This document shows, piece by piece, positions 1 through 44,246 of a stretch of DNA of 44,246 nt (its first letter is position 1; every line of letters begins with the position of its first letter). The stretch is from a virus (Duplodnaviria; Heunggongvirae; Uroviricota; Caudoviricetes). The stretch spans positions 1 through 44,246 of the IMG/VR virus record IMGVR_UViG_3300045988_013393. The stretch is one strand, 5' to 3'. A model generated the notes under the pieces. The model worked only from the letters and a program-made list of their open reading frames with translations. It was not told the origin of the DNA and did no database searches. Both the position numbers and the translations under genes were made by a program.

Positions 1-84
1 ACCTGTTACACCACCTGTTACACCACCTGTTACACCACCTGTTACACCACCTGTTACACCACCTGTTACACCACCTGTTACACC
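1..84. repeat. Tandem direct repeat, 12-bp unit ACCTGTTACACC, 7 copies; array continues at window end (44192-44246)
   Basis: Seven perfect head-to-tail copies at 1-84; same unit and phase family at the 3' end of the window, consistent with a circular/permuted assembly broken inside the array. Confidence 0.9.
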
Positions 85-216
85 AGCACGGTATTGCACA
101 CCAGCTTTCCACGCCCGCCACGCGAGACGCGTCTTAACGTTCAGGTACCCTTTCTTTGAACCTTTGTTAACCGGCAGACCCTCGACTACAGCCCACCGTT
201 CAAATGCTTCTCTCAT
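1..216 (-). CDS. N-terminal part of small (GVTG)n repeat protein (ORF runs off window start, resumes at window end)
   Basis: ATG at 216-214 preceded by GAGGA RBS; reads MREAFERWAVVEGLPVNKGSKKGYLNVKTRLAWRAWKAGVQYRA then in-frame GVTG repeats through the 12-bp array; no stop before position 1. Confidence 0.4.
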   Translation of the reverse strand, partial: MREAFERWAVVEGLPVNKGSKKGYLNVKTRLAWRAWKAGVQYRAGVTGGVTGGVTGGVTGGVTGGVTGGVTG

Positions 217-219
217 AAC

Positions 220-411
220 TTAGTCCTCATCATCTTCTAAGTCAGGGTACACTATGAAATCTCCAGGCCTTTGCAACTCAGCGCCAGCCATAAAATAACC
301 AAGTGCTTCGGCCCTTTCGGAATCTGTTTTAAACTCAGACAAAGGGTATCTTTCATAGAACTTGTTAATTAATAACGCCTGGTCAAACTTAGTCGCATCG
401 TAACCGCTCAT
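220..411 (-). CDS. Hypothetical small protein (63 aa), acidic C-terminus LEDDED
   Basis: ORF with ATG start; ATGA overlap with the upstream gene (translational coupling). Confidence 0.45.
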   Translation of the reverse strand: MSGYDATKFDQALLINKFYERYPLSEFKTDSERAEALGYFMAGAELQRPGDFIVYPDLEDDED

Positions 412-602
412 AACTCTACCCCATGGTGCTTAAGGAAACTGTTTAACTTGTACTCACGGTACTGTACGGACGCTTTAGCGCGAGCGACAAACCATGCCTT
501 TGAGGAAAAATATGGCGTACTCTCCCATGTATCGAGAGCTAATTTAGCGTTACTTAATCCGCGACGTAGACGCTCAAGGCGTAATTGGTTATACGGACTC
601 AT
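408..602 (-). CDS. Hypothetical small protein (64 aa)
   Basis: ATG start, ATGA-coupled to neighbours. Confidence 0.45.
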   Translation of the reverse strand: MSPYNQLRLERLRRGLSNAKLALDTWESTPYFSSKAWFVARAKASVQYREYKLNSFLKHHGVEL

Positions 603-871
603 ACCAACCCCATCTTCTCTTTAACGTGCACCCAAAACTCACCACAATACCAGCACCACATAAGATTAGGTGTCTCGCGCACCCAACCATAATCCTTTCG
701 GGCACGAATCGGAATAATGCCTTTAGTGAAATAATAACCCGTGCGCAGAAAATCAGGGTCGCGCGTCGCAGTGCGCCACATGTTATAAAACTGCTCCAGC
801 CCGGCACCCCGGCGCATGACCCGTATTTTATGGTTATATTCCGCTACTGTTTTCAGTTCAGTGTTATTCAT
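599..871 (-). CDS. Hypothetical protein (90 aa)
   Basis: ATG start, coupled to neighbours in the minus-strand small-gene array. Confidence 0.45.
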   Translation of the reverse strand: MNNTELKTVAEYNHKIRVMRRGAGLEQFYNMWRTATRDPDFLRTGYYFTKGIIPIRARKDYGWVRETPNLMWCWYCGEFWVHVKEKMGLV

Positions 872-1056
872 TTACGGCAACCTCCCTCAGAGTCGTCGGC
901 ACGAGCATCACGATTCGATGCCGTTCTCTCCCGCACTTCGACCATCCTTCCTACCTCTGCGGCGTAATACACATACAGCTTTATTGCGTAATCTTTATTA
1001 CTCGTGGTCTCTGTTATGGCTCCGTCTACGTATACGTCGTAAATTAATTCTTCCAT
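868..1056 (-). CDS. Hypothetical small protein (~62 aa)
   Basis: ORF track 868..1059; ATG at 1056-1054 overlaps the upstream stop. Confidence 0.4.
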   Translation of the reverse strand: MEELIYDVYVDGAITETTSNKDYAIKLYVYYAAEVGRMVEVRERTASNRDARADDSEGGCRK

Positions 1057-1238: not shown

Positions 1239-1272
1239 AACCCTCACTCCTCTGTCTCGTTTCGATAAGTGA

Positions 1273-1301
1273 ATAGTATCCTATTATGTTGGGGTGTGCA
1301 A
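1273..1301 (-). promoter_or_regulatory. Class B sigma70-like promoter (TTGCAC-N17-TACTAT) with embedded GAATAG-N4-CTATTA palindrome
   Basis: On minus strand TTGCAC (1301-1296), 17-bp spacer, TACTAT (1278-1273); ~60-bp element nearly identical to 22553-22581, 32481-32509 and 43865-43893. Confidence 0.5.
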
Positions 1302-1363: not shown

Positions 1364-1394
1364 GGTAACTAAAGGGCAGGCCTTAAGCCTGCCC
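1364..1394 (-). terminator. GC-rich stem-loop (GGGCAGGC-cttaa-GCCTGCCC), possible intrinsic terminator on minus strand
   Basis: 8-bp perfect stem; T-rich tract follows on minus strand (plus taactaaa 1366-1373). Confidence 0.3.
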
Positions 1395-1534
1395 AATAAT
1401 CGTTACATTTTTACGGTTGCGAATCTACGGCACATTAAGAAACAGTAGATATTTCAGCGGGTTACTTCTTTAAATGAGATTTAGATACACTTATCCTTAA
1501 ACCCCAAGGCAAGCATCTCAGTTGTCTGGGAGGG

Positions 1535-1566
1535 GTTGACGAATCCCTCGGGGAGGGTTCGTCAAC
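1535..1566. promoter_or_regulatory. Long imperfect palindrome GTTGACGAA(t)CCCT-cgggg-AGGGTTCGTCAAC in divergent non-coding region
   Basis: 13-bp arms with one bulge read directly from sequence; function unknown (operator, ori element or RNA structure). Confidence 0.3.
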
Positions 1567-1660
1567 TCCGTAATATATACAAGTCCCAAAACCATTATAC
1601 AAACATGTGTCAAGAACTTTCAATAACTTTTTTGTAAAGATTAAATATAGCAGGGATTGG

Positions 1661-10838: not shown

Positions 10839-11033
10839 ATGAAACATGAATACGACCGCAAACCAGCACGTGACATCGTACCGGGCGACATGATTTTCAA
10901 CGTTAAGACCCGTCGTCCTGTTGCCGTTGATACAGTGTTCGTCGAGTCGAACGGTAAACTGGTCATCGAAGATGTAACCGGTAACGTTACGGCGTTTGGG
11001 CGGAAGGAATTGGTACTCTACGTTAAGGGTTGA
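10839..11033 (+). CDS. Hypothetical small protein (64 aa)
   Basis: ORF with RBS AAGGAA; DIVPGDMIF motif resembles small ORF 40137-40301 (DLVPGDVLF). Confidence 0.45.
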   Translation: MKHEYDRKPARDIVPGDMIFNVKTRRPVAVDTVFVESNGKLVIEDVTGNVTAFGRKELVLYVKG

Positions 11034-38972: not shown

Positions 38973-39128
38973 TTACCCGGTGATATCTCTGCCGTCTACC
39001 AGTGCTAACGGGATTCTCACTTCACCGTTGAATGTTTCGGCGTACCAGAACTTCTCACACTGCGTTACACTGAAAACATCGAGTTCTGACGTAGCGCCGG
39101 TTTTCCAGTAGACAGTTAACTTTTTCAC
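38973..39128 (-). CDS. Small ORF (51 aa, GTG start)
   Basis: GTGA-coupled to the upstream gene; below ORF-track cutoff. Confidence 0.25.
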   Translation of the reverse strand: MKKLTVYWKTGATSELDVFSVTQCEKFWYAETFNGEVRIPLALVDGRDITG

Positions 39129-39361
39129 TCCTCACTCTCCTCTTTAGCAATGCGTTGCTCAGTTTTAGTGATACCGCGGCGAGTGAATAACACCGGGCTT
39201 GTCTTAACATGCGTCATAAGACGGTTGTTATAAATTACGTGACGCTCGCAGTTAACGTCTTTGCTGTACTTCGCAATCGTCATTTCGTTGATGCCAGTTT
39301 GTCGGCATGTCTCAGCCATCGTGCCATATTCTTTAATCAGGTTCGGAATGCTGGTAATCAT
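39125..39361 (-). CDS. Small HTH-containing protein (78 aa)
   Basis: GTMAETCRQTGINEMTIAKYSKD helix-turn-helix; ATGA-coupled; ORF track 39125..39385. Confidence 0.4.
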   Translation of the reverse strand: MITSIPNLIKEYGTMAETCRQTGINEMTIAKYSKDVNCERHVIYNNRLMTHVKTSPVLFTRRGITKTEQRIAKEESEE

Positions 39362-39528
39362 CCTAAGAAATTCCTCGTTGTCCACATCGCATTCGGATAT
39401 TTATTATCGCGGTCCTGCACTACGGTAATCATGTTACCGCGTTGCACGAGGCAAAAGTGCCGCTGTTGCTCGCCGTTATAGCGCCGCCATATTGCTTCTT
39501 CGATTGCTGCGTTGATGTCACTGAACAT
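39358..39528 (-). CDS. Small ORF (56 aa)
   Basis: ATG start, ATGA-coupled; below ORF-track cutoff. Confidence 0.25.
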   Translation of the reverse strand: MFSDINAAIEEAIWRRYNGEQQRHFCLVQRGNMITVVQDRDNKYPNAMWTTRNFLG

Positions 39529-39615
39529 TAATATCTACCCCGCAGAAATCCAACCAATAACCCAATGAAGTAACTAAGACCGACCAGACCAATAACCACC
39601 TCAAGACTCATACTC

Positions 39616-39804
39616 TCACCCCACTATCTCATCACCAAGCCACGCCGTTTCTCGTATATCGTCGACCACACAGGCGGCGTGCTCCCGGCTTATTGCAAAA
39701 ATGTAGAAGCTGAACTTCTTCCCGTCGGCGTCGATGTGGTTAACCGAGTAGGGTTTCCATAGGACGCCATCAATAACTACCGGTTCAGGCGCTTTCATAC
39801 CCAT
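39616..39804 (-). CDS. Hypothetical small protein (~62 aa)
   Basis: ORF track 39616..39807 (GTG); ATG at 39804. Confidence 0.35.
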   Translation of the reverse strand: MGMKAPEPVVIDGVLWKPYSVNHIDADGKKFSFYIFAISREHAACVVDDIRETAWLGDEIVG

Positions 39805-39982
39805 CACCAGAGACTTTGTTCAGGTTGAATCGGTTAATCAGTTCACGGCGTGTCTCATAGAGCGACTCAACCATTTGCTCAGCTACCGCGATTTTAGTAT
39901 TAAGGACGTGCATCACGTGACCGATGTCTACGCCGCCGTTAACAGCCTCTACCATCATCTTTTCGTATTCGCGGTCAGTCAT
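39785..39982 (-). CDS. Hypothetical small protein (65 aa)
   Basis: ATG start, ATGA-coupled. Confidence 0.4.
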   Translation of the reverse strand: MTDREYEKMMVEAVNGGVDIGHVMHVLNTKIAVAEQMVESLYETRRELINRFNLNKVSGDGYESA

Positions 39983-40137
39983 ACTTTACGCTCTCCCCAC
40001 ATGCGATTGAGATACCTGTTCTTGTCCGGCCCCTGGAAACTGTTACGTTTCATCAGTTCCTCGCGTGTCGGGAACGGTGTGTGACTGACTTTACGGCCTA
40101 CTCGTAATAGTTGGCTTACTTGACCTTGTTCGCTCAT
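39979..40137 (-). CDS. Small ORF (52 aa)
   Basis: ATG start; coupled to both neighbours. Confidence 0.3.
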   Translation of the reverse strand: MSEQGQVSQLLRVGRKVSHTPFPTREELMKRNSFQGPDKNRYLNRMWGERKV

Positions 40138-40301
40138 CACTTAACCTCAACATAATCGGTAGTAAGGAATACAATTTCGCCGTTAACAATCAAAAGCGGC
40201 GTATCTTCTAGGACACTTTTAACCTCTACAAAATACCCGCCGTAACTGTTATCTATAAACAGAACGTCTCCAGGTACTAAATCTGCGGCTAACTTGCTCA
40301 T
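40137..40301 (-). CDS. Small ORF (54 aa), resembles ORF 10839
   Basis: ATG start; DLVPGDVLF...VEVK resembles DIVPGDMIF...LYVKG of 10839-11033. Confidence 0.3.
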   Translation of the reverse strand: MSKLAADLVPGDVLFIDNSYGGYFVEVKSVLEDTPLLIVNGEIVFLTTDYVEVK

Positions 40302-40546
40302 TTCTTCTCTCCTGCATAAGCTGCTTTCAGTGTCTGCATCGCGGCGAACCAGAACGCGTCCGCTGGAATGCTGTTGCTCAGGTTACTAACGGCGATACGT
40401 GCCATCAGTTGCGCGTCTTTGAATGCCTCGGTATCCGTGATTTTCATTGGAAATTTACGCATAGCAACCGGGTCGTTATCCATAGTCCATGCGATGCATT
40501 TAGCTTCAAGTTCCTCGGTTATTTCTACCGTTGATACGTTACTCAT
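40298..40546 (-). CDS. Hypothetical protein (82 aa)
   Basis: ATG start; first gene after the long non-coding region. Confidence 0.4.
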   Translation of the reverse strand: MSNVSTVEITEELEAKCIAWTMDNDPVAMRKFPMKITDTEAFKDAQLMARIAVSNLSNSIPADAFWFAAMQTLKAAYAGEKK

Positions 40547-40628
40547 TTCTCTCTACTCCGTTCTCGTTGTCGATGGAGTAAATATAATAGGGTCGAAGGT
40601 AATAGTCAACTAGTCATTGCGGAAAATA

Positions 40629-40662
40629 GATAAAAAAAATCCCGGCTGGGTCAGGGCCGGGA
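40629..40662 (-). terminator. Intrinsic terminator on minus strand (ATCCCGGC-loop-GCCGGGAT + T8)
   Basis: 8-bp stem followed by eight T on minus strand (plus A-run 40631-40638). Confidence 0.6.
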
Positions 40663-40702
40663 TAAAACTGGAGAGTAGAGGGATGAAGCAGGAGGTGATT
40701 TA

Positions 40703-40731
40703 AGTATCGTCGGATTAGTCTTAGGTGTCAA
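40703..40731 (-). promoter_or_regulatory. Candidate promoter (TTGACA-N17-GATACT) for a short minus-strand transcript
   Basis: Consensus -35 on minus strand; would give a ~65-nt pyrimidine-rich RNA ending at terminator 40629-40662. Confidence 0.25.
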
Positions 40732-40857
40732 CAGAGATTCTCCGGCACGCGTTACCGCACTTTGGCCCGACCTTGTTACGGGTCCGCGGGGGTGATGGTA
40801 CCCGGGATGCCCTCAATGTTGTTTAATCTTCTGTTGCCGTTAGTCTATCAAACTACG

Positions 40858-40890
40858 GACAAAATAAAACCCGGATTCGCGGTCCGGGTT
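40858..40890 (-). terminator. Intrinsic terminator on minus strand (AACCCGGA-ttcgcgg-TCCGGGTT + TTTTATTTT)
   Basis: Perfect 8-bp stem with T-rich tail, downstream of endolysin. Confidence 0.55.
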
Positions 40891-41067
40891 TCGGGTGGTG
40901 CAAGCACAAACAGCGTAGGGCTATTATTCCCCGTAACCCGCTTGCTCGTCAATATCGTCACGGGATTTAACCGGGTTGGTGAACTCTTGCAGTGCCATAA
41001 CGGCCTCCATTAGCAAATACGAAAAACTTGGCCTAACCAGAATACTACACGTCCCAGTTCTCTTCCA

Positions 41068-41571
41068 TCATTTAACAGCCCTCCCAATAGCCTCCGCCTC
41101 CTGCCACGGTTTACCGTCGAACAGCGCCAGACGACCAGCTACGCGACGGCGTAGGCCGAGCACAGGCTCGAGTTTACCGGTTTTCGGGTTGCGTTGGTTA
41201 ATGAACTGACTCATCTTATGCCGTAAGGTTGTGATGTCCCCCTGCCGTAGCGCCTTACCAGTTCCAGTAGTAGCCGCAATCACGCCAGTCCCTGCGTTGA
41301 ACACCAGGTCGACAACGGCATCAAACTGAGCCTGGGTCAGTGAGGGGTGCGCGACTTCATCGACTGCTTTCACCGCCCACTGCATATCACGGTTCAGTAA
41401 CAGCAACCCCTGGCCTTCGGTAATCTTCTGGCCTTCGTACACATCCGGTCCGGTATGGCCCCAGCCTATAGTCCAGTATTTCTCGTTCTTTGTTGCTTTG
41501 TATGCAGTTCCGCGAAACTTCTCCCACGCCTTTTTGAACTGCAGCCCATTATCTGAAATATTTCGAGACAC
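41068..41571 (-). CDS. Endolysin, lysozyme-like (GTG start at 41571; ORF track extends to 41622)
   Basis: Lysozyme-like catalytic region (AWEKFRG...YWTIGWGHTG); GGAGGA RBS before the GTG. Confidence 0.65.
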   Translation of the reverse strand: MSRNISDNGLQFKKAWEKFRGTAYKATKNEKYWTIGWGHTGPDVYEGQKITEGQGLLLLNRDMQWAVKAVDEVAHPSLTQAQFDAVVDLVFNAGTGVIAATTGTGKALRQGDITTLRHKMSQFINQRNPKTGKLEPVLGLRRRVAGRLALFDGKPWQEAEAIGRAVK

Positions 41572-41821
41572 GCTTATATCCTCCGTACGACAACCACGCC
41601 TGACGAATCTGACGCAGCGCAACTAATGTGATTAACGTCTCAGGCAACGTTGGTGACACGCTGCCCTGTAACAGGTGGATACATCCGGCGGCGCAGACAA
41701 TCACAGTCAGGATATAGAGCACACGCCCGAATAACCCGTCGTCCACGTGCCCATTATACACACTGAACAGGGACGAAGCGCCCATTGCCAGCATTACGAC
41801 AAACCAGAATAGCTCAGTCAT
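41549..41821 (-). CDS. Holin/antiholin-like membrane protein (90 aa, two TM segments)
   Basis: MTELFWFVVMLAMGASS and ILTVIVCAAGCIHLL hydrophobic segments; immediately upstream of endolysin. Confidence 0.5.
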   Translation of the reverse strand: MTELFWFVVMLAMGASSLFSVYNGHVDDGLFGRVLYILTVIVCAAGCIHLLQGSVSPTLPETLITLVALRQIRQAWLSYGGYKRVSKYFR

Positions 41822-42122
41822 GAGGTCCTCCCGGGCGGGAAATATCGCCACCCGATACGATGCCAGAAAGGCGGGAATAGATAGGCATCCAGAGAATGGC
41901 AATGATGAATCCGAGGCCAGCTATCTCGCGCTCACCGGTAATACCGAACCATTGAGCGGCAAGAGGTGCACCGAAAATGGCACACGCGAAGCCGGTGAGA
42001 AGAAATACCAGTCCGTCGACTGGACCGGATATAGACTTTTTATGTTGTCTTAGTCCGACCAATCCACCGACCAGTGCGGCGGTGAGAAGCCACCCCGTCA
42101 CTGTTTCAGTAAATTTATCCAA
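41814..42122 (-). CDS. Holin (102 aa, TTG start with GGAGGA RBS)
   Basis: Multiple TM segments, charged C-terminus; first gene of lysis cassette. Confidence 0.5.
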   Translation of the reverse strand: MDKFTETVTGWLLTAALVGGLVGLRQHKKSISGPVDGLVFLLTGFACAIFGAPLAAQWFGITGEREIAGLGFIIAILWMPIYSRLSGIVSGGDISRPGGPHD

Positions 42123-42197
42123 GATGAATCCTCCAGGTGCGTATTAAGTATGCAGTAACTGGAGGATAGCACGGTTAGGAATTATCTTAATAACGGT

Positions 42198-42491
42198 TTA
42201 TTTATGTCTCCAGATGTATGGCCGTCTCTGCGGTTTCGTCGGAATATCATCATATCCCAGCGATTTCCAGTAATTAAATAACCGATTAGCGATAGCCGCG
42301 CGTTCCTTTGTTTTAAACTCACCGAGATTCACGGCCTTCCCGTTCTGGAATCCACAGGCTCGGATAGCTTTACGTCTGGCCTGAATCTCTGGGTACGGCA
42401 CGTTACGGCGGCGCTTGTATATCTGAGTGTTTGCTCTCGGCGACAGCGGCGCAAGGCCGCTGCGTTTCAGGATGTCAGTTGCAAGGCTCAT
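42198..42491 (-). CDS. Hypothetical basic protein (97 aa)
   Basis: ATG 42491, ATGA-coupled; ORF track 42198..42536. Confidence 0.4.
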   Translation of the reverse strand: MSLATDILKRSGLAPLSPRANTQIYKRRRNVPYPEIQARRKAIRACGFQNGKAVNLGEFKTKERAAIANRLFNYWKSLGYDDIPTKPQRRPYIWRHK

Positions 42492-42682
42492 ATTCTGAGA
42501 ATCTCGCGGGCCATTTCTTCTGTAACTTTCGAACAAGGTTCGTACATTACCTGTTCAGCGAATTCACGTAACTTTGCTTCAAGTTTCAGATAAGCATCAT
42601 ACTCTACATAATCGCCGTATGCATACTCAGCCATCTCGGGCTCTGGCAGACCCCACGCTTTTACCTCATATCTCTGCGCCAT
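42488..42682 (-). CDS. Hypothetical small protein (64 aa), paralog of 42682-42864
   Basis: YDAYLKLEAKLREFAEQ parallels YEDYAKLEAELQKYKDQ in the adjacent gene. Confidence 0.4.
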   Translation of the reverse strand: MAQRYEVKAWGLPEPEMAEYAYGDYVEYDAYLKLEAKLREFAEQVMYEPCSKVTEEMAREILRI

Positions 42683-42864
42683 CAATCCACCCCTTCCACA
42701 CGTGTAACTGACCCGCAGTTCGCGCACTCGACGTAATCAGGGAACTGGTCTTTGTATTTCTGTAACTCGGCTTCGAGTTTCGCGTAGTCTTCATAACTTA
42801 CGTACTCCCCGTTTACTTTGCTATCGAAGTGGCCATCTTCATAAAAGCCTTTGCGAACAGCCAT
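42682..42864 (-). CDS. Hypothetical small protein (60 aa) with C-terminal CxxC
   Basis: ATG start; tandem paralog of the downstream gene. Confidence 0.4.
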   Translation of the reverse strand: MAVRKGFYEDGHFDSKVNGEYVSYEDYAKLEAELQKYKDQFPDYVECANCGSVTRVEGVD

Positions 42865-42866
42865 AA

Positions 42867-43070
42867 TTATCTCTCCTGTTTACCAAGTCGCTTAGGTGAG
42901 CAGATAGCGCGTACCTCTGAATCGTTGGGCTTGTCGCCCTGAAACAGAAAGTGCGCGTTCTCTGCGGCGCGTGCCGCTGACTGGCACGCCTCCATCGAGT
43001 AAAACGTTTCTGATGCCGCCAGTTGCATCTGGCCTGCGGTAAGTGTCCAGATAAATAAGATGCTGGTCAC
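42867..43070 (-). CDS. Hypothetical small protein (67 aa, GTG start)
   Basis: ORF coupled to the upstream gene; hydrophobic N-terminus. Confidence 0.35.
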   Translation of the reverse strand: MTSILFIWTLTAGQMQLAASETFYSMEACQSAARAAENAHFLFQGDKPNDSEVRAICSPKRLGKQER

Positions 43071-43546
43071 TACTTACGCGCCCCACAATTAAAGCAAACG
43101 AATCCACTTTTGCGTTTACTATATAACCAATTGTGCTCGCATTCCTGTGTGTCAATCTTGTATTCCACTATGTCTGCGTATGTTCCATCCCAAATCCACG
43201 ACCGCTTTTCTGCTGCTACACTGTGTTTCGGCTCCTCCCCGTTGCGATACCGGATAAATACCATAGTCCCATCCGGCACAGGTTGTCGTGCGCCATAATG
43301 CGGCCTCCAGGCGTTGTACTGAGTATCTTCCTTACGGCAACCAGATTGCTCTGCTGCTATATAAGCGCCTACGTCACCCGTAGCTGTAGCCAACGCCTTA
43401 TGCAACTCCTTAATATGTTCTGACGCATCACGTAACTGATTCTTAAGTGACTGCACCTCATGCGCCAGGCCTTCGCACTGGTTGTTATTTACCTGCTGCC
43501 GTAACTGGTCAATCAGGTACTCGAATACTTCGTTTTTATTGTTCAT
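43070..43546 (-). CDS. Hypothetical protein (158 aa), N-terminal coiled coil, C-terminal Cys cluster
   Basis: ATG start; C-terminal CEHNW...CFNCG zinc-ribbon-like. Confidence 0.45.
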   Translation of the reverse strand: MNNKNEVFEYLIDQLRQQVNNNQCEGLAHEVQSLKNQLRDASEHIKELHKALATATGDVGAYIAAEQSGCRKEDTQYNAWRPHYGARQPVPDGTMVFIRYRNGEEPKHSVAAEKRSWIWDGTYADIVEYKIDTQECEHNWLYSKRKSGFVCFNCGARK

Positions 43547-43703
43547 TTTTCTGTTGCTCCCGGTCTCTTTTTAACATTTCGTTGGCTTCCGCCGGTGCCT
43601 CTTTCCAGGTATCGAACTGGCGCCCGTTGCACACCCACGGAGCACCATTATAATTTCCTCTACGTCTTAAGTACCCGTACGATACTGCTTCTTTAAACGT
43701 CAT
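43536..43703 (-). CDS. Small ORF (55 aa)
   Basis: ATG start, overlaps downstream gene by 11 nt; below ORF-track cutoff. Confidence 0.3.
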   Translation of the reverse strand: MTFKEAVSYGYLRRRGNYNGAPWVCNGRQFDTWKEAPAEANEMLKRDREQQKNEQ

Positions 43704-43833
43704 ATTCTTCACCCCTTTTCTCGTCCACCCTGACTAGAAGCGATTTAGTGTCGCCGTCGCACACCGAAGTGCTGCCCATCATTTCGTAAGCATCTACCAG
43801 TTCGCCTAAAGTCCAGCTACCGTACCAACCCAT
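43693..43833 (-). CDS. Small ORF (46 aa), first gene after class B promoter
   Basis: ATG with GAGGAGA RBS. Confidence 0.35.
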   Translation of the reverse strand: MGWYGSWTLGELVDAYEMMGSTSVCDGDTKSLLVRVDEKRGEEYDV

Positions 43834-43864
43834 ATCCTGTCTCTCCTCTCGTTTGTGTAAATGA

Positions 43865-43893
43865 ATAGTAGCCTATTCTATCTTAGTGTGCAA
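43865..43893 (-). promoter_or_regulatory. Class B promoter (TTGCAC-N17-TACTAT) with perfect GAATAG-gcta-CTATTC palindrome
   Basis: Aligns with the element at 1273-1301 including the downstream leader; drives the minus-strand small-gene array towards the lysis cassette. Confidence 0.5.
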
Positions 43894-43900
43894 GTAAATT

Positions 43901-44071
43901 TTATTGGTGTTTTAAAGATAATCGTTCACTGCGAATCCAGTAGTACCTCGGGCGTCGTACCCACTGACGCCATCGCATAACACGGTACTTGTTGCCGTCT
44001 GACGCAACAATAAGCCCGAATCGCTTTTCTCCGTTTCTACCGGTCCAGGTTACGATGTCATTCAGTTTCAT
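43901..44071 (-). CDS. Small basic ORF (56 aa)
   Basis: ATG 44071 with CAGGAGA RBS; Arg/Trp-rich C-terminal half. Confidence 0.3.
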   Translation of the reverse strand: MKLNDIVTWTGRNGEKRFGLIVASDGNKYRVMRWRQWVRRPRYYWIRSERLSLKHQ

Positions 44072-44124
44072 TGTTGCATCTCCTGCAATAGTCGCTTCGA
44101 TTGTTGCGTTTGGTGAAATAGAAC

Positions 44125-44163
44125 AAAAATGAGAAAAATGATACGCTGCTGTGTAGCAGCGTA
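44125..44163 (-). terminator. Intrinsic terminator on minus strand (TACGCTGCT-acac-AGCAGCGTA + T-rich tail)
   Basis: Perfect 9-bp stem followed on minus strand by TCATTTTTCTCATTTTT; lies just after the stop of the repeat ORF. Confidence 0.55.
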
Positions 44164-44185
44164 AGTCACTCAGTAAAATCCCAAA

Positions 44186-44246
44186 CTATTGACCTGTTAC
44201 ACCACCTGTTACACCACCTGTTACACCACCTGTTACACCACCTGTT
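44186..44246 (-). CDS. C-terminal part of (GVTG)n repeat protein; stop at 44188-44186
   Basis: Minus-strand GVTG frame through the repeat ends with Gln then TAG just outside the array; joins ORF 1-216 only if the replicon is circular/permuted. Confidence 0.35.
   Translation of the reverse strand, partial: TGGVTGGVTGGVTGGVTGQ
44192..44246. repeat. Tandem direct repeat ACCTGTTACACC, 4 full copies plus 7 bp, continuous with array at 1-84
   Basis: Same unit as window start; window ends mid-unit. Confidence 0.9.

Follow-up and report, generated by a model that had tools for sequence, protein, structure and literature searches.

The flagged stretch at positions 43693–44071 raises the question of whether the tiny, overlapping minus-strand ORFs found near both ends of the analysed DNA (the window, 44,246 nt in total) are genuine genes, how they are organized and transcribed, and what their products might contribute to the phage. 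The sequence-only reading had described two arrays of about 20 such ORFs, translationally coupled and including tandem paralogs, and had assigned them to a host-takeover or anti-defence gene pool in which no member has a recognisable function.

The genome and its relatives

A search of phage records with a 5.2-kb query (39000–44246) matches 447 records. The best matches are Escherichia phages of the genus Kagunavirus (Guernseyvirinae), with 87–93% identity over 68–82% of the query, and Salmonella phages of the genus Jerseyvirus rank next. The large ORFs of the window encode a helicase-primase-type ATPase, a PD-(D/E)XK nuclease, a family A DNA polymerase, an SNF2 helicase, a tape-measure protein, a portal-type protein and a T4-type large terminase; Rfam (at the gathering threshold) and tRNA scans of the entire window yield nothing. 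The matches to Kagunavirus, together with the content of the large ORFs, indicate that the window is the complete, ~44.2 kb genome of a member of this well-sampled group of lytic siphoviruses.

The order of genes, namely control region, small genes, two holins, endolysin, small genes and terminase, is shared with the phages Golestan, fBC-Eco01, Bas71 and Bas74, and is also found in two Salmonella phages of the genus Jerseyvirus, BPS11Q3 and ER10. In Golestan (NC_042084, gp54–gp77), fBC-Eco01 (OM272052) and the BASEL phages Bas70–76, the small-gene region has the same position, strand and gene order as in the window. The promoter-like element, the terminator and the lysis cassette of the annotated Kagunavirus and Jerseyvirus phages are the same as those of the window, and most of the small genes are 85–98% identical to an annotated “hypothetical protein” of these phages; the window differs from them in having its own combination of cassettes. 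Small genes of this kind, which are typical of tailed phages, are already annotated as hypothetical proteins in more than 100 related records.

One region of small genes, cut inside a repeat

A 12-nt tandem repeat spans both ends of the window, with 7.1 copies at 1–85 and 4.6 copies at 44192–44246, and, read on the minus strand, it supplies the (GVTG)n tail of an ORF with its start at 216. Direct joining of the window ends shifts the frame of this ORF; once a 7-nt terminal overlap is removed, the frame is restored and the protein ends in GVTGQ-stop at 44187. In Golestan, fBC-Eco01, Bas71 and Bas74, the small genes run uninterrupted from the divergent control region to the lysis cassette. Given the repeat at both ends and the uninterrupted region in the relatives, the window junction is therefore an arbitrary assembly cut, and the left and right arrays form a single contiguous region, which runs leftwards from the divergent control region (~1300) across the junction to the lysis cassette. 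The minus-strand small genes on either side of the junction are thus present as described, but they do not make up two separate arrays. The GVTG repeat itself is expanded in the window, with ~11 units compared to 2–3 in Golestan. The features of the region, in the leftward direction, are as follows.

1266..1301, minus strand: promoter-like element at the head of the left block; TTGCAC-N17-TACTAT and the palindrome AATAG-N4-CTATT, followed by the conserved leader AAACGAGA and a ribosome-binding site (RBS); listed in the fBC-Eco01 annotation as a PHIRE “phage promoter” (PMC9825357)
1056..1238, minus strand: L1, 60 aa; invariant ends MFKKGQLV... and ...LIGNNFKFKGAK with a hypervariable middle; phrog_12538
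868..1056, minus strand: L2, 62 aa; TGATG 1-nt overlap with L1; phrog_30617
599..871, minus strand: L3, 90 aa; ATGA overlap; CxxC motif; without a PHROG or Pfam match
408..602, minus strand: L4, 64 aa; ATGA overlap; dN/dS 0.10 against Golestan
220..411, minus strand: L5, 63 aa; ATGA overlap; phrog_27229
1..216, minus strand: 5' part of the junction-crossing ORF (MREAFERW...), with the (GVTG)n C-terminal tail from the repeat at 1–85; phrog_15836 covers residues 1–42 only
44187..44246, minus strand: 3' part of the junction-crossing ORF, with the repeat at 44192–44246 and the stop codon TAG at 44189–44187 once the 7-nt terminal overlap is removed
44142..44163, minus strand: intrinsic terminator, hairpin and T-run, within a leader of ~115 nt whose conservation exceeds that of the gene after it
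43901..44071, minus strand: R1, 56 aa (focal ORF); predicted SH3/Tudor/KOW-like small beta-barrel, Guernseyvirinae-specific, a clean presence/absence cassette
43858..43893, minus strand: the promoter-like element again (copy 2), at the head of the right block
43693..43833, minus strand: R2, 46 aa (focal ORF), acidic; 30 phage records
43536..43703, minus strand: R3, 55 aa from ATG; rare (6 records); overlaps both neighbors by 11 nt
43070..43546, minus strand: R4, 158 aa; conserved coiled-coil N-terminus, C-terminus ending in C...CxxC; phrog_6094
42867..43070, minus strand: R5, 67 aa, GTG start; core gene with a hydrophobic N-terminus and two cysteines; phrog_3766
42682..42864, minus strand: R6, 60 aa, paralog A
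42488..42682, minus strand: R7, 64 aa, paralog B; TGATG 1-nt overlap with R6
42198..42491, minus strand: R8, 97 aa, predicted AP2-type DNA-binding domain; core gene directly upstream of the lysis cassette
41068..42122, minus strand: lysis cassette with two holins and an endolysin, located between the right and post-lysis blocks
40581..40614, minus strand: promoter-like site TTGACT-N17-TATATT heading the post-lysis block; a copy of the palindrome with one mismatch lies over its -35 region
38973..40546, minus strand: post-lysis block, 8 small genes
Post-lysis genes 1–4, minus strand, start–stop: 40546–40298 (82 aa); 40301–40137 (54 aa, VPGD); 40137–39979 (DUF2737); 39982–39785
Post-lysis genes 5–8, minus strand, start–stop: 39804–39616; 39528–39358; 39385–39125 (NinH-like); 39128–38973

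The two arrays hold 14 genes (five in the left block, the repeat-bearing gene and eight in the right block), so that the earlier count of about 20 is reached only when the eight genes beyond the lysis cassette are included. The latter form a third block (40546–38973), which lies between the endolysin and the small terminase and includes the VPGD ORF at 40137–40301.

Gene junctions and coding signal

Overlaps are found at 9 of the 11 gene junctions within the left and right arrays: four are of the ATGA type, three are of 1 nt (TGATG twice, TAGTG once) and two are of 11 nt, and the remaining two junctions are spacers of 2–3 nt. The junctions of the post-lysis block are similar. Among the overlap types originally listed for this DNA, ATGA is confirmed at the four junctions, GTGA occurs just once, in the post-lysis block, and TAATG is found at no junction. 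Such stop/start overlaps would couple translation, with ribosomes running down each array. When the best start codons are chosen, a purine-rich Shine-Dalgarno sequence lies upstream of nearly every small gene, including the 56-, 46- and 55-aa ORFs; the latter three, which fall below 60 aa, are indeed present on the minus strand at 43901–44071, 43693–43833 and 43536–43703.

A tblastn search with the 56-aa ORF identifies homologs in 240 phage records, 212 of which are from Salmonella phages and encode a full-length protein at the same position with 44–52% amino acid identity; the dN/dS against these distant homologs is 0.33–0.39. The 46-aa ORF is found in 30 records with identity down to 57–66% and dN/dS of 0.14–0.45, and its changes include 8 synonymous and 5 non-synonymous ones, though only ~20% of the sites are synonymous. 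For the 55-aa ORF, found in 6 records, dN/dS is 0.07–0.17, and the comparison with 22664BS2 reveals 6 synonymous and 2 non-synonymous changes, again with only about one-fifth of the sites being synonymous. Among the remaining small genes, dN/dS is 0.02–0.6 where the number of changes suffices, with the exception of L1 and L2, the most rearranged genes of the left block, for which the values are ~0.35–1.2 depending on the relative compared.

Judging from these substitution patterns, the sub-60-aa ORFs behave as protein-coding genes under purifying selection. That they are untranslated chance frames in regulatory or spacer DNA is highly improbable: the ORFs are very short, the 56-aa ORF sits between a terminator and a promoter, with flanking non-coding DNA better conserved than the ORF itself, and a nonsense codon truncates it in Bas74, but the 56-aa protein is kept at full length with ~50% identity across two genera (dN/dS 0.33–0.39), its AlphaFold model is confident (pLDDT 90.8), the 46-aa and 55-aa ORFs show an excess of synonymous changes (8 vs 5 and 6 vs 2, respectively) despite the low fraction of synonymous sites (~20%), and each of the three has a good RBS.

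Promoter-like elements, palindrome and terminator

An element of ~60 nt precedes both the left block (1301–1266) and the 46-aa gene (43893–43858) and consists of TTGCAC, a 17-nt spacer, TACTAT, AAACGAGA and an RBS. There are 2 strict copies of this element compared to 0.04 expected, and 5 extended copies in the whole genome compared to 0.01 expected, each located ~20–35 nt upstream of an RBS and ATG. The palindrome AATAG-N4-CTATT, which overlaps the -10 hexamer, is found in 10 copies in the genome (with at most one mismatch) compared to 1.05 expected, and the distance from any copy to the next downstream start codon of its strand does not exceed ~75 nt. Both the -35 and the -10 hexamers of the element deviate from the consensus, and a sigma-70 scan missed them. 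Across six phages, the element and its leader are nearly invariant and the flanking genes differ. The intrinsic terminator at 44163–44142 separates the left unit from the genes downstream; the 56-aa ORF, between this terminator and the next promoter, is without a convincing promoter of its own. The small-gene region is split into at least three units, each headed by a promoter-like element with the palindrome.

In fBC-Eco01, PHIRE detected this same motif, as seven “phage promoters” with the consensus tgAATAGTa-ccTATTat-T, and the authors assign the repeated motif to a “phage-encoded RNA polymerase” (PMC9825357), wording that is treated here as a PHIRE default. Because the large ORFs of the window (those of at least 416 aa; two large ORFs of the tail region have no Pfam match at all) yielded no RNA polymerase domain, we infer that the host sigma-70 RNA polymerase would transcribe the units early in infection and that the palindrome would be bound by a phage regulator, which may coordinate the units. 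The literature searched (genome reports and the BASEL paper) contains no transcription or early-gene data for Kagunavirus or Jerseyvirus.

Mosaic gene content and proposed cassette exchange

The 56-aa ORF is cleanly missing in Bas71, 22664BS2 and Golestan, and in all three the conserved leader and RBS run straight into the promoter, with just the final dozen nucleotides of the ORF left in between. Bas74 has the ORF, but with a nonsense codon at position 33. Six genomes display six different gene orders downstream of the same, nearly invariant promoter, and neither the left block nor the focal 657 nt is covered to 80% or more by any record. In R4, the 158-aa protein, near-identical N-terminal 45 residues are joined to differing C-terminal modules among phages. 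In BPS11Q3, the terminator-leader is ~90% identical to that of the window and the 56-aa gene that follows only ~58% identical at the nucleotide level; the promoter downstream of this gene is conserved in both Salmonella phages examined. In this handful of genomes (six), the gene content differs cassette by cassette, with the breakpoints at the conserved promoter, RBS and terminator linkers, and these linkers might be the recombination points at which cassettes are shuffled.

A precedent exists in T4-type phages, in which composite cassettes of promoter and terminator, the PeSL, bring about modular shuffling (PMC2839356, PMC4122927). As with the PeSL, a conserved early-type promoter next to a terminator hairpin flanks small variable ORFs, and insertions, deletions and replacements end there. 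The differences are that the window comes from a siphovirus with a distinct motif and that, of the two parts, only the promoter recurs in the genome (5–10 copies), the terminator hairpin occurring in one copy beside it. PeSL-like recombination at this motif would be deduced from six genomes. A more far-reaching proposal, possible but on the unlikely side, is that the linkers act like PeSL in Guernseyvirinae, moving tiny genes between phages of E. coli and Salmonella, and that the lineage-restricted 56-aa barrel and its neighbors are new host-directed or counter-defence effectors under the control of a single palindrome-binding regulator.

Folds and domains of the products

The products are small binding modules, namely a barrel, an AP2 domain, a pair of paralogs, a coiled-coil protein with a cysteine motif, a NinH-like protein and a DUF2737 protein. 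The statement that none of these genes has a recognisable function goes too far: relationships to AP2, DUF2737 and NinH are detectable, and an SH3/Tudor-like fold is predicted for the 56-aa protein. Among the small proteins, Pfam recognises only the DUF2737 and NinH-like ORFs, NCBIfam gives no meaningful match for ten small proteins, and the PHROG families of most of the others are of unknown function, with five proteins lacking any PHROG.

The ORF at 39979–40137 belongs to DUF2737 (PF10930), with a score of 32.2 bits compared to the cut-off of 25 (E 1e-7). The ORF at 39125–39385 matches NinH (PF06322) with 24.3 bits (E 2.9e-5), below the gathering cut-off of 29.8, and has no NCBIfam hit; its 93%-identical homolog in Golestan is named “NinH family protein” in RefSeq. 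NinH of phage lambda is a Fis-like DNA-binding protein (PMC7166090).

The 97-aa protein R8 itself has no Pfam hit at E < 0.1. However, 7 of 40 homologs match the Pfam AP2 domain (PF00847; best E 1e-6), and a search of the PDB with the family profile identifies the AP2 domain of WRI1 (E 3.5e-4), followed by two further hits that are also AP2, the structures coming from plants and apicomplexans. The AP2 fold is expected to comprise a three-stranded sheet that packs onto one helix; for R8, only two strands are modelled. R8 is also distinct in being a stand-alone protein of 97 aa with a disordered basic N-terminus and no other detectable domain. The protein, encoded just upstream of the holins, is conserved in phages of E. 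coli, Salmonella, Klebsiella and Enterobacter. These profile matches suggest that R8 is a protein with an AP2-type DNA-binding domain and might function as a DNA-binding regulator. The label “peptidase HslV family” found in relatives belongs to a different Salmonella-phage gene and does not apply to R8. The 67-aa protein R5 is 96% identical to its counterpart in a Salmonella phage and is therefore a core gene.

The AlphaFold model of the 56-aa protein (pLDDT 90.8) is an SH3-like barrel of four to five strands. In this model, the protein would adopt an SH3/Tudor/KOW-like barrel, a generic fold that gives no function; sequence identity to the Tudor, KOW, PWWP and NdhS barrels is 10–20%, with no membership in any of them at the sequence level. 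A HMMER search with the family among 1.84 billion representative proteins identifies 18 members, all encoded in phage contigs of ~40–45 kb; the matches comprise its own lineage and SH3-like repeats of unrelated proteins, and no known family is bridged. Similarly, in a fold search of viral models, only the Salmonella-phage homolog of the protein itself is significant.

The proposal of tandem paralogs at 42682–42864 and 42488–42682 proved sound. A BLASTP comparison of R6 (42864–42682) and R7 (42682–42488) gives an E value of 2e-6, with 42% identity over 36 residues. The Smith-Waterman score of 67, the best of all small-protein pairs tested, compares to 25.7 +/- 4.9 for shuffled sequences (8 SD; maximum 54) and is reached by none of 5000 shuffles. 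Across 9 family members, including ones from other phages, the two families share the N-terminal MVQRY and the core G-YV-YEDY-KLEA-L. For the recurrent VPGD protein (10839–11033 and 40137–40301), the motif is present in both ORFs, and their relatedness is only suggestive: the score of 47 is reached by 2 of 5000 shuffles and is the second best of ~325 pairs, which corresponds to ~0.1 after correction for multiple comparisons, and the BLASTP alignment spans only 14 residues, with most of the identity within the 14 N-terminal residues. The copy at 40137–40301 is rare (4 records). A relationship between L1 (1238–1056) and the 56-aa barrel was also considered and dropped, the pairwise score being at chance level and the hhalign probability 1%.

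Role of the region

Taken together, these observations are best compatible with the flagged stretch being, probably, an accessory small-gene region of a lytic Kagunavirus, in which promoter-headed units mix core and exchangeable genes. The genes lie beside the divergent control region, the usual place of host-takeover and accessory genes. Under this hypothesis, the translationally coupled units would bring together a small number of conserved genes, core or DNA-binding, and exchangeable small binding modules of conditional benefit, and the variable genes may encode conditionally useful binders of host or phage macromolecules that act in host takeover, exclusion or counter-defence.

A possibility that merits some weight, even if it is rather doubtful as a general explanation, is that the majority of the genes act within the programme of the phage itself, as DNA-binding regulators or as replication, recombination or transcription factors comparable to those of the lambda nin region, and are not directed at the host. 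The AP2 protein, conserved across the subfamily and located directly upstream of the lysis genes, fits this possibility, as do the NinH-like and DUF2737 ORFs, given the Fis-like DNA binding of lambda NinH (PMC7166090), and the operator-like palindrome at the heads of 10 gene blocks needs a protein that binds it. Nevertheless, most members are individually dispensable across the relatives, which is unexpected of core regulators; a relationship of the DNA-binding type is found in only 3 of the 22 small genes (the repeat-bearing ORF counted); and two HTH proteins with genes elsewhere in the genome (1720–1903, plus strand, and 4825–4613, minus strand) are just as plausible as binders of the palindrome.

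It is unlikely that the region is a dedicated anti-defence island, in which most of the small proteins would inhibit bacterial immunity and an arms race would maintain the variability. The small size of the genes, their position, typical of early genes, their strongly variable presence (6 records for the 55-aa ORF, 4 for the VPGD ORF and 30 for the 46-aa ORF) and the acidic 46-aa product all agree with such an island, and PHROG gives weak matches, one to a Lar-like family (E 0.0063) and one to a Gp5.9-like family (E 0.0072). These two matches are confined to short, coiled-coil-like stretches with insignificant E values, however, and both identities were rejected; a match to a known inhibitor is found neither in Pfam and NCBIfam nor among PDB sequences. 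Furthermore, the BASEL study reports Kagunavirus phages to be highly sensitive to restriction-modification systems, with their sensitivity to Old varying (PMC11990801), several products look DNA-binding or regulatory (the AP2 domain, the NinH-like protein and neighboring HTH proteins), and the 67-aa and 97-aa ORFs are core genes conserved across two genera that do not belong to the variable pool. Of the host-takeover or anti-defence gene pool proposed initially, the dense set of small accessory genes, many of them dispensable and mosaic, is borne out, and the anti-defence assignment, with no significant match to an inhibitor, is not.

For an accessory region of mixed core and exchangeable genes, the outcome is a refined annotation of a well-sampled phage genus that by itself opens no new question: real tiny ORFs are told apart, a fold or domain is proposed for two products, and the regulatory elements heading the gene blocks are mapped. 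Such an annotation is useful for engineering small phages and for screening genes because the conserved genes are separated from the exchangeable ones and the swap points are marked. The results would carry greater weight if the variable genes were shown to encode new factors of host takeover or counter-defence, or the exchange of cassettes to be driven by the linkers.

A parallel outside the subfamily is found in the lambda nin region and comparable lambdoid blocks, which also consist of runs of genes for 50–100 aa with ATGA-type overlaps that are individually dispensable and mosaic, and the block of the window shares with them the NinH-like and DUF2737 ORFs. Unlike the nin region, which is located between P and Q, the blocks of the window adjoin the lysis and terminase genes, and the phage is lytic, not lambdoid.

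Terminated promoter elements and a common palindrome

Two of the blocks of small minus-strand genes, the post-lysis block and the left block, are preceded by similar promoter-terminator elements:

40630-40731, minus strand: promoter, pyrimidine-rich stretch and terminator, upstream of the post-lysis block
1374-1623, minus strand: second near-consensus promoter with a terminated stretch, upstream of the left block

The 40630-40731 element starts with a near-consensus promoter, TTGACA-N17-GATACT, followed by a pyrimidine-rich stretch of ~65 nt and a strong terminator made up of a hairpin and U8; its entire length is nearly unchanged across the Kagunavirus relatives Golestan, Bas74 and Bas71. Within the pyrimidine-rich stretch, AUCACCUCCU is identical to the 16S rRNA 3' end, and CUCUACUC is complementary to GAGUAGAG in the ribosome-binding site region of the next gene (start at 40546). 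Possible readings of this element, which has no match in Rfam, are a small RNA and a terminated leader of the kind found at lambda PR'. In the 1374-1623 element, about 200 nt with a long hairpin and a terminator (1394-1374) lie downstream of the promoter, TTGAAA-N18-TATAAT overlapped by a TTGACA. Given that this element is located directly upstream of the left-block promoter, it has the same layout as 40630-40731, i.e., a strong promoter, a short terminated transcript and then the block promoter.

The palindrome AATAG-N4-CTATT occurs genome-wide in 10 copies, compared to 1.05 expected:

1272, 4856, 4900, 7019, 10787, 22569, 32406, 32497, 40601 and 43864: copies of AATAG-N4-CTATT, 14 nt each

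All copies head a gene block and overlap a -10 or -35 hexamer. The palindrome looks like an operator whose regulon extends over the genome. One of the copies lies upstream of a gene for a Cro/CI-type HTH protein (4825-4613, minus strand), and the product of this gene could be an autoregulated binder of the palindrome.

Leader of the 56-aa gene and the repeat across the window ends

The terminator-bearing non-coding leader of the 56-aa gene in this E. coli phage (44072-44186) shows about 90% identity to its counterpart in the Salmonella phage BPS11Q3 (L006, 2883-3001), compared to about 58% nucleotide identity for the 56-aa gene that follows it. Because the leader is far more similar than the gene, this comparison suggests a recent exchange or an additional function of the leader itself.

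The following two features span the window ends:

1-85 and 44192-44246, both window ends: 12-nt tandem repeat ACCTGTTACACC
216 to 44187, minus strand: repeat-bearing ORF encoding a small conserved protein

The repeat gives this protein about 11 C-terminal GVTG units, compared to about 2-3 in the Golestan homologue, and the match to phrog_15836 is limited to residues 1-42. When the two window ends are joined directly, the ORF changes frame; hence both the repeat copy number and the junction are probably assembly-dependent.

Modular small proteins

In the window and its homologues from five relatives (L001-L005), the product of the first left-block gene (1056-1238) combines invariant termini, MFKKGQLV at the N-terminus and LIGNNFKFKGAK at the C-terminus, with a middle part that is wholly different from phage to phage. 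An ORF of this stretch is labelled "FeoA family protein" in the record of one relative. In the 158-aa protein (43070-43546), the N-terminal 45 residues are nearly identical across homologues, including those from Salmonella phages, and are fused to differing C-terminal modules of 80-190 residues; the module in the window protein terminates in a zinc-ribbon-like C...CxxC motif. The database protein P0050 has an N-terminal half from the 56-aa family fused to the C-terminal half of the 67-aa core protein, and appears to be a natural deletion in which the intervening genes were lost.
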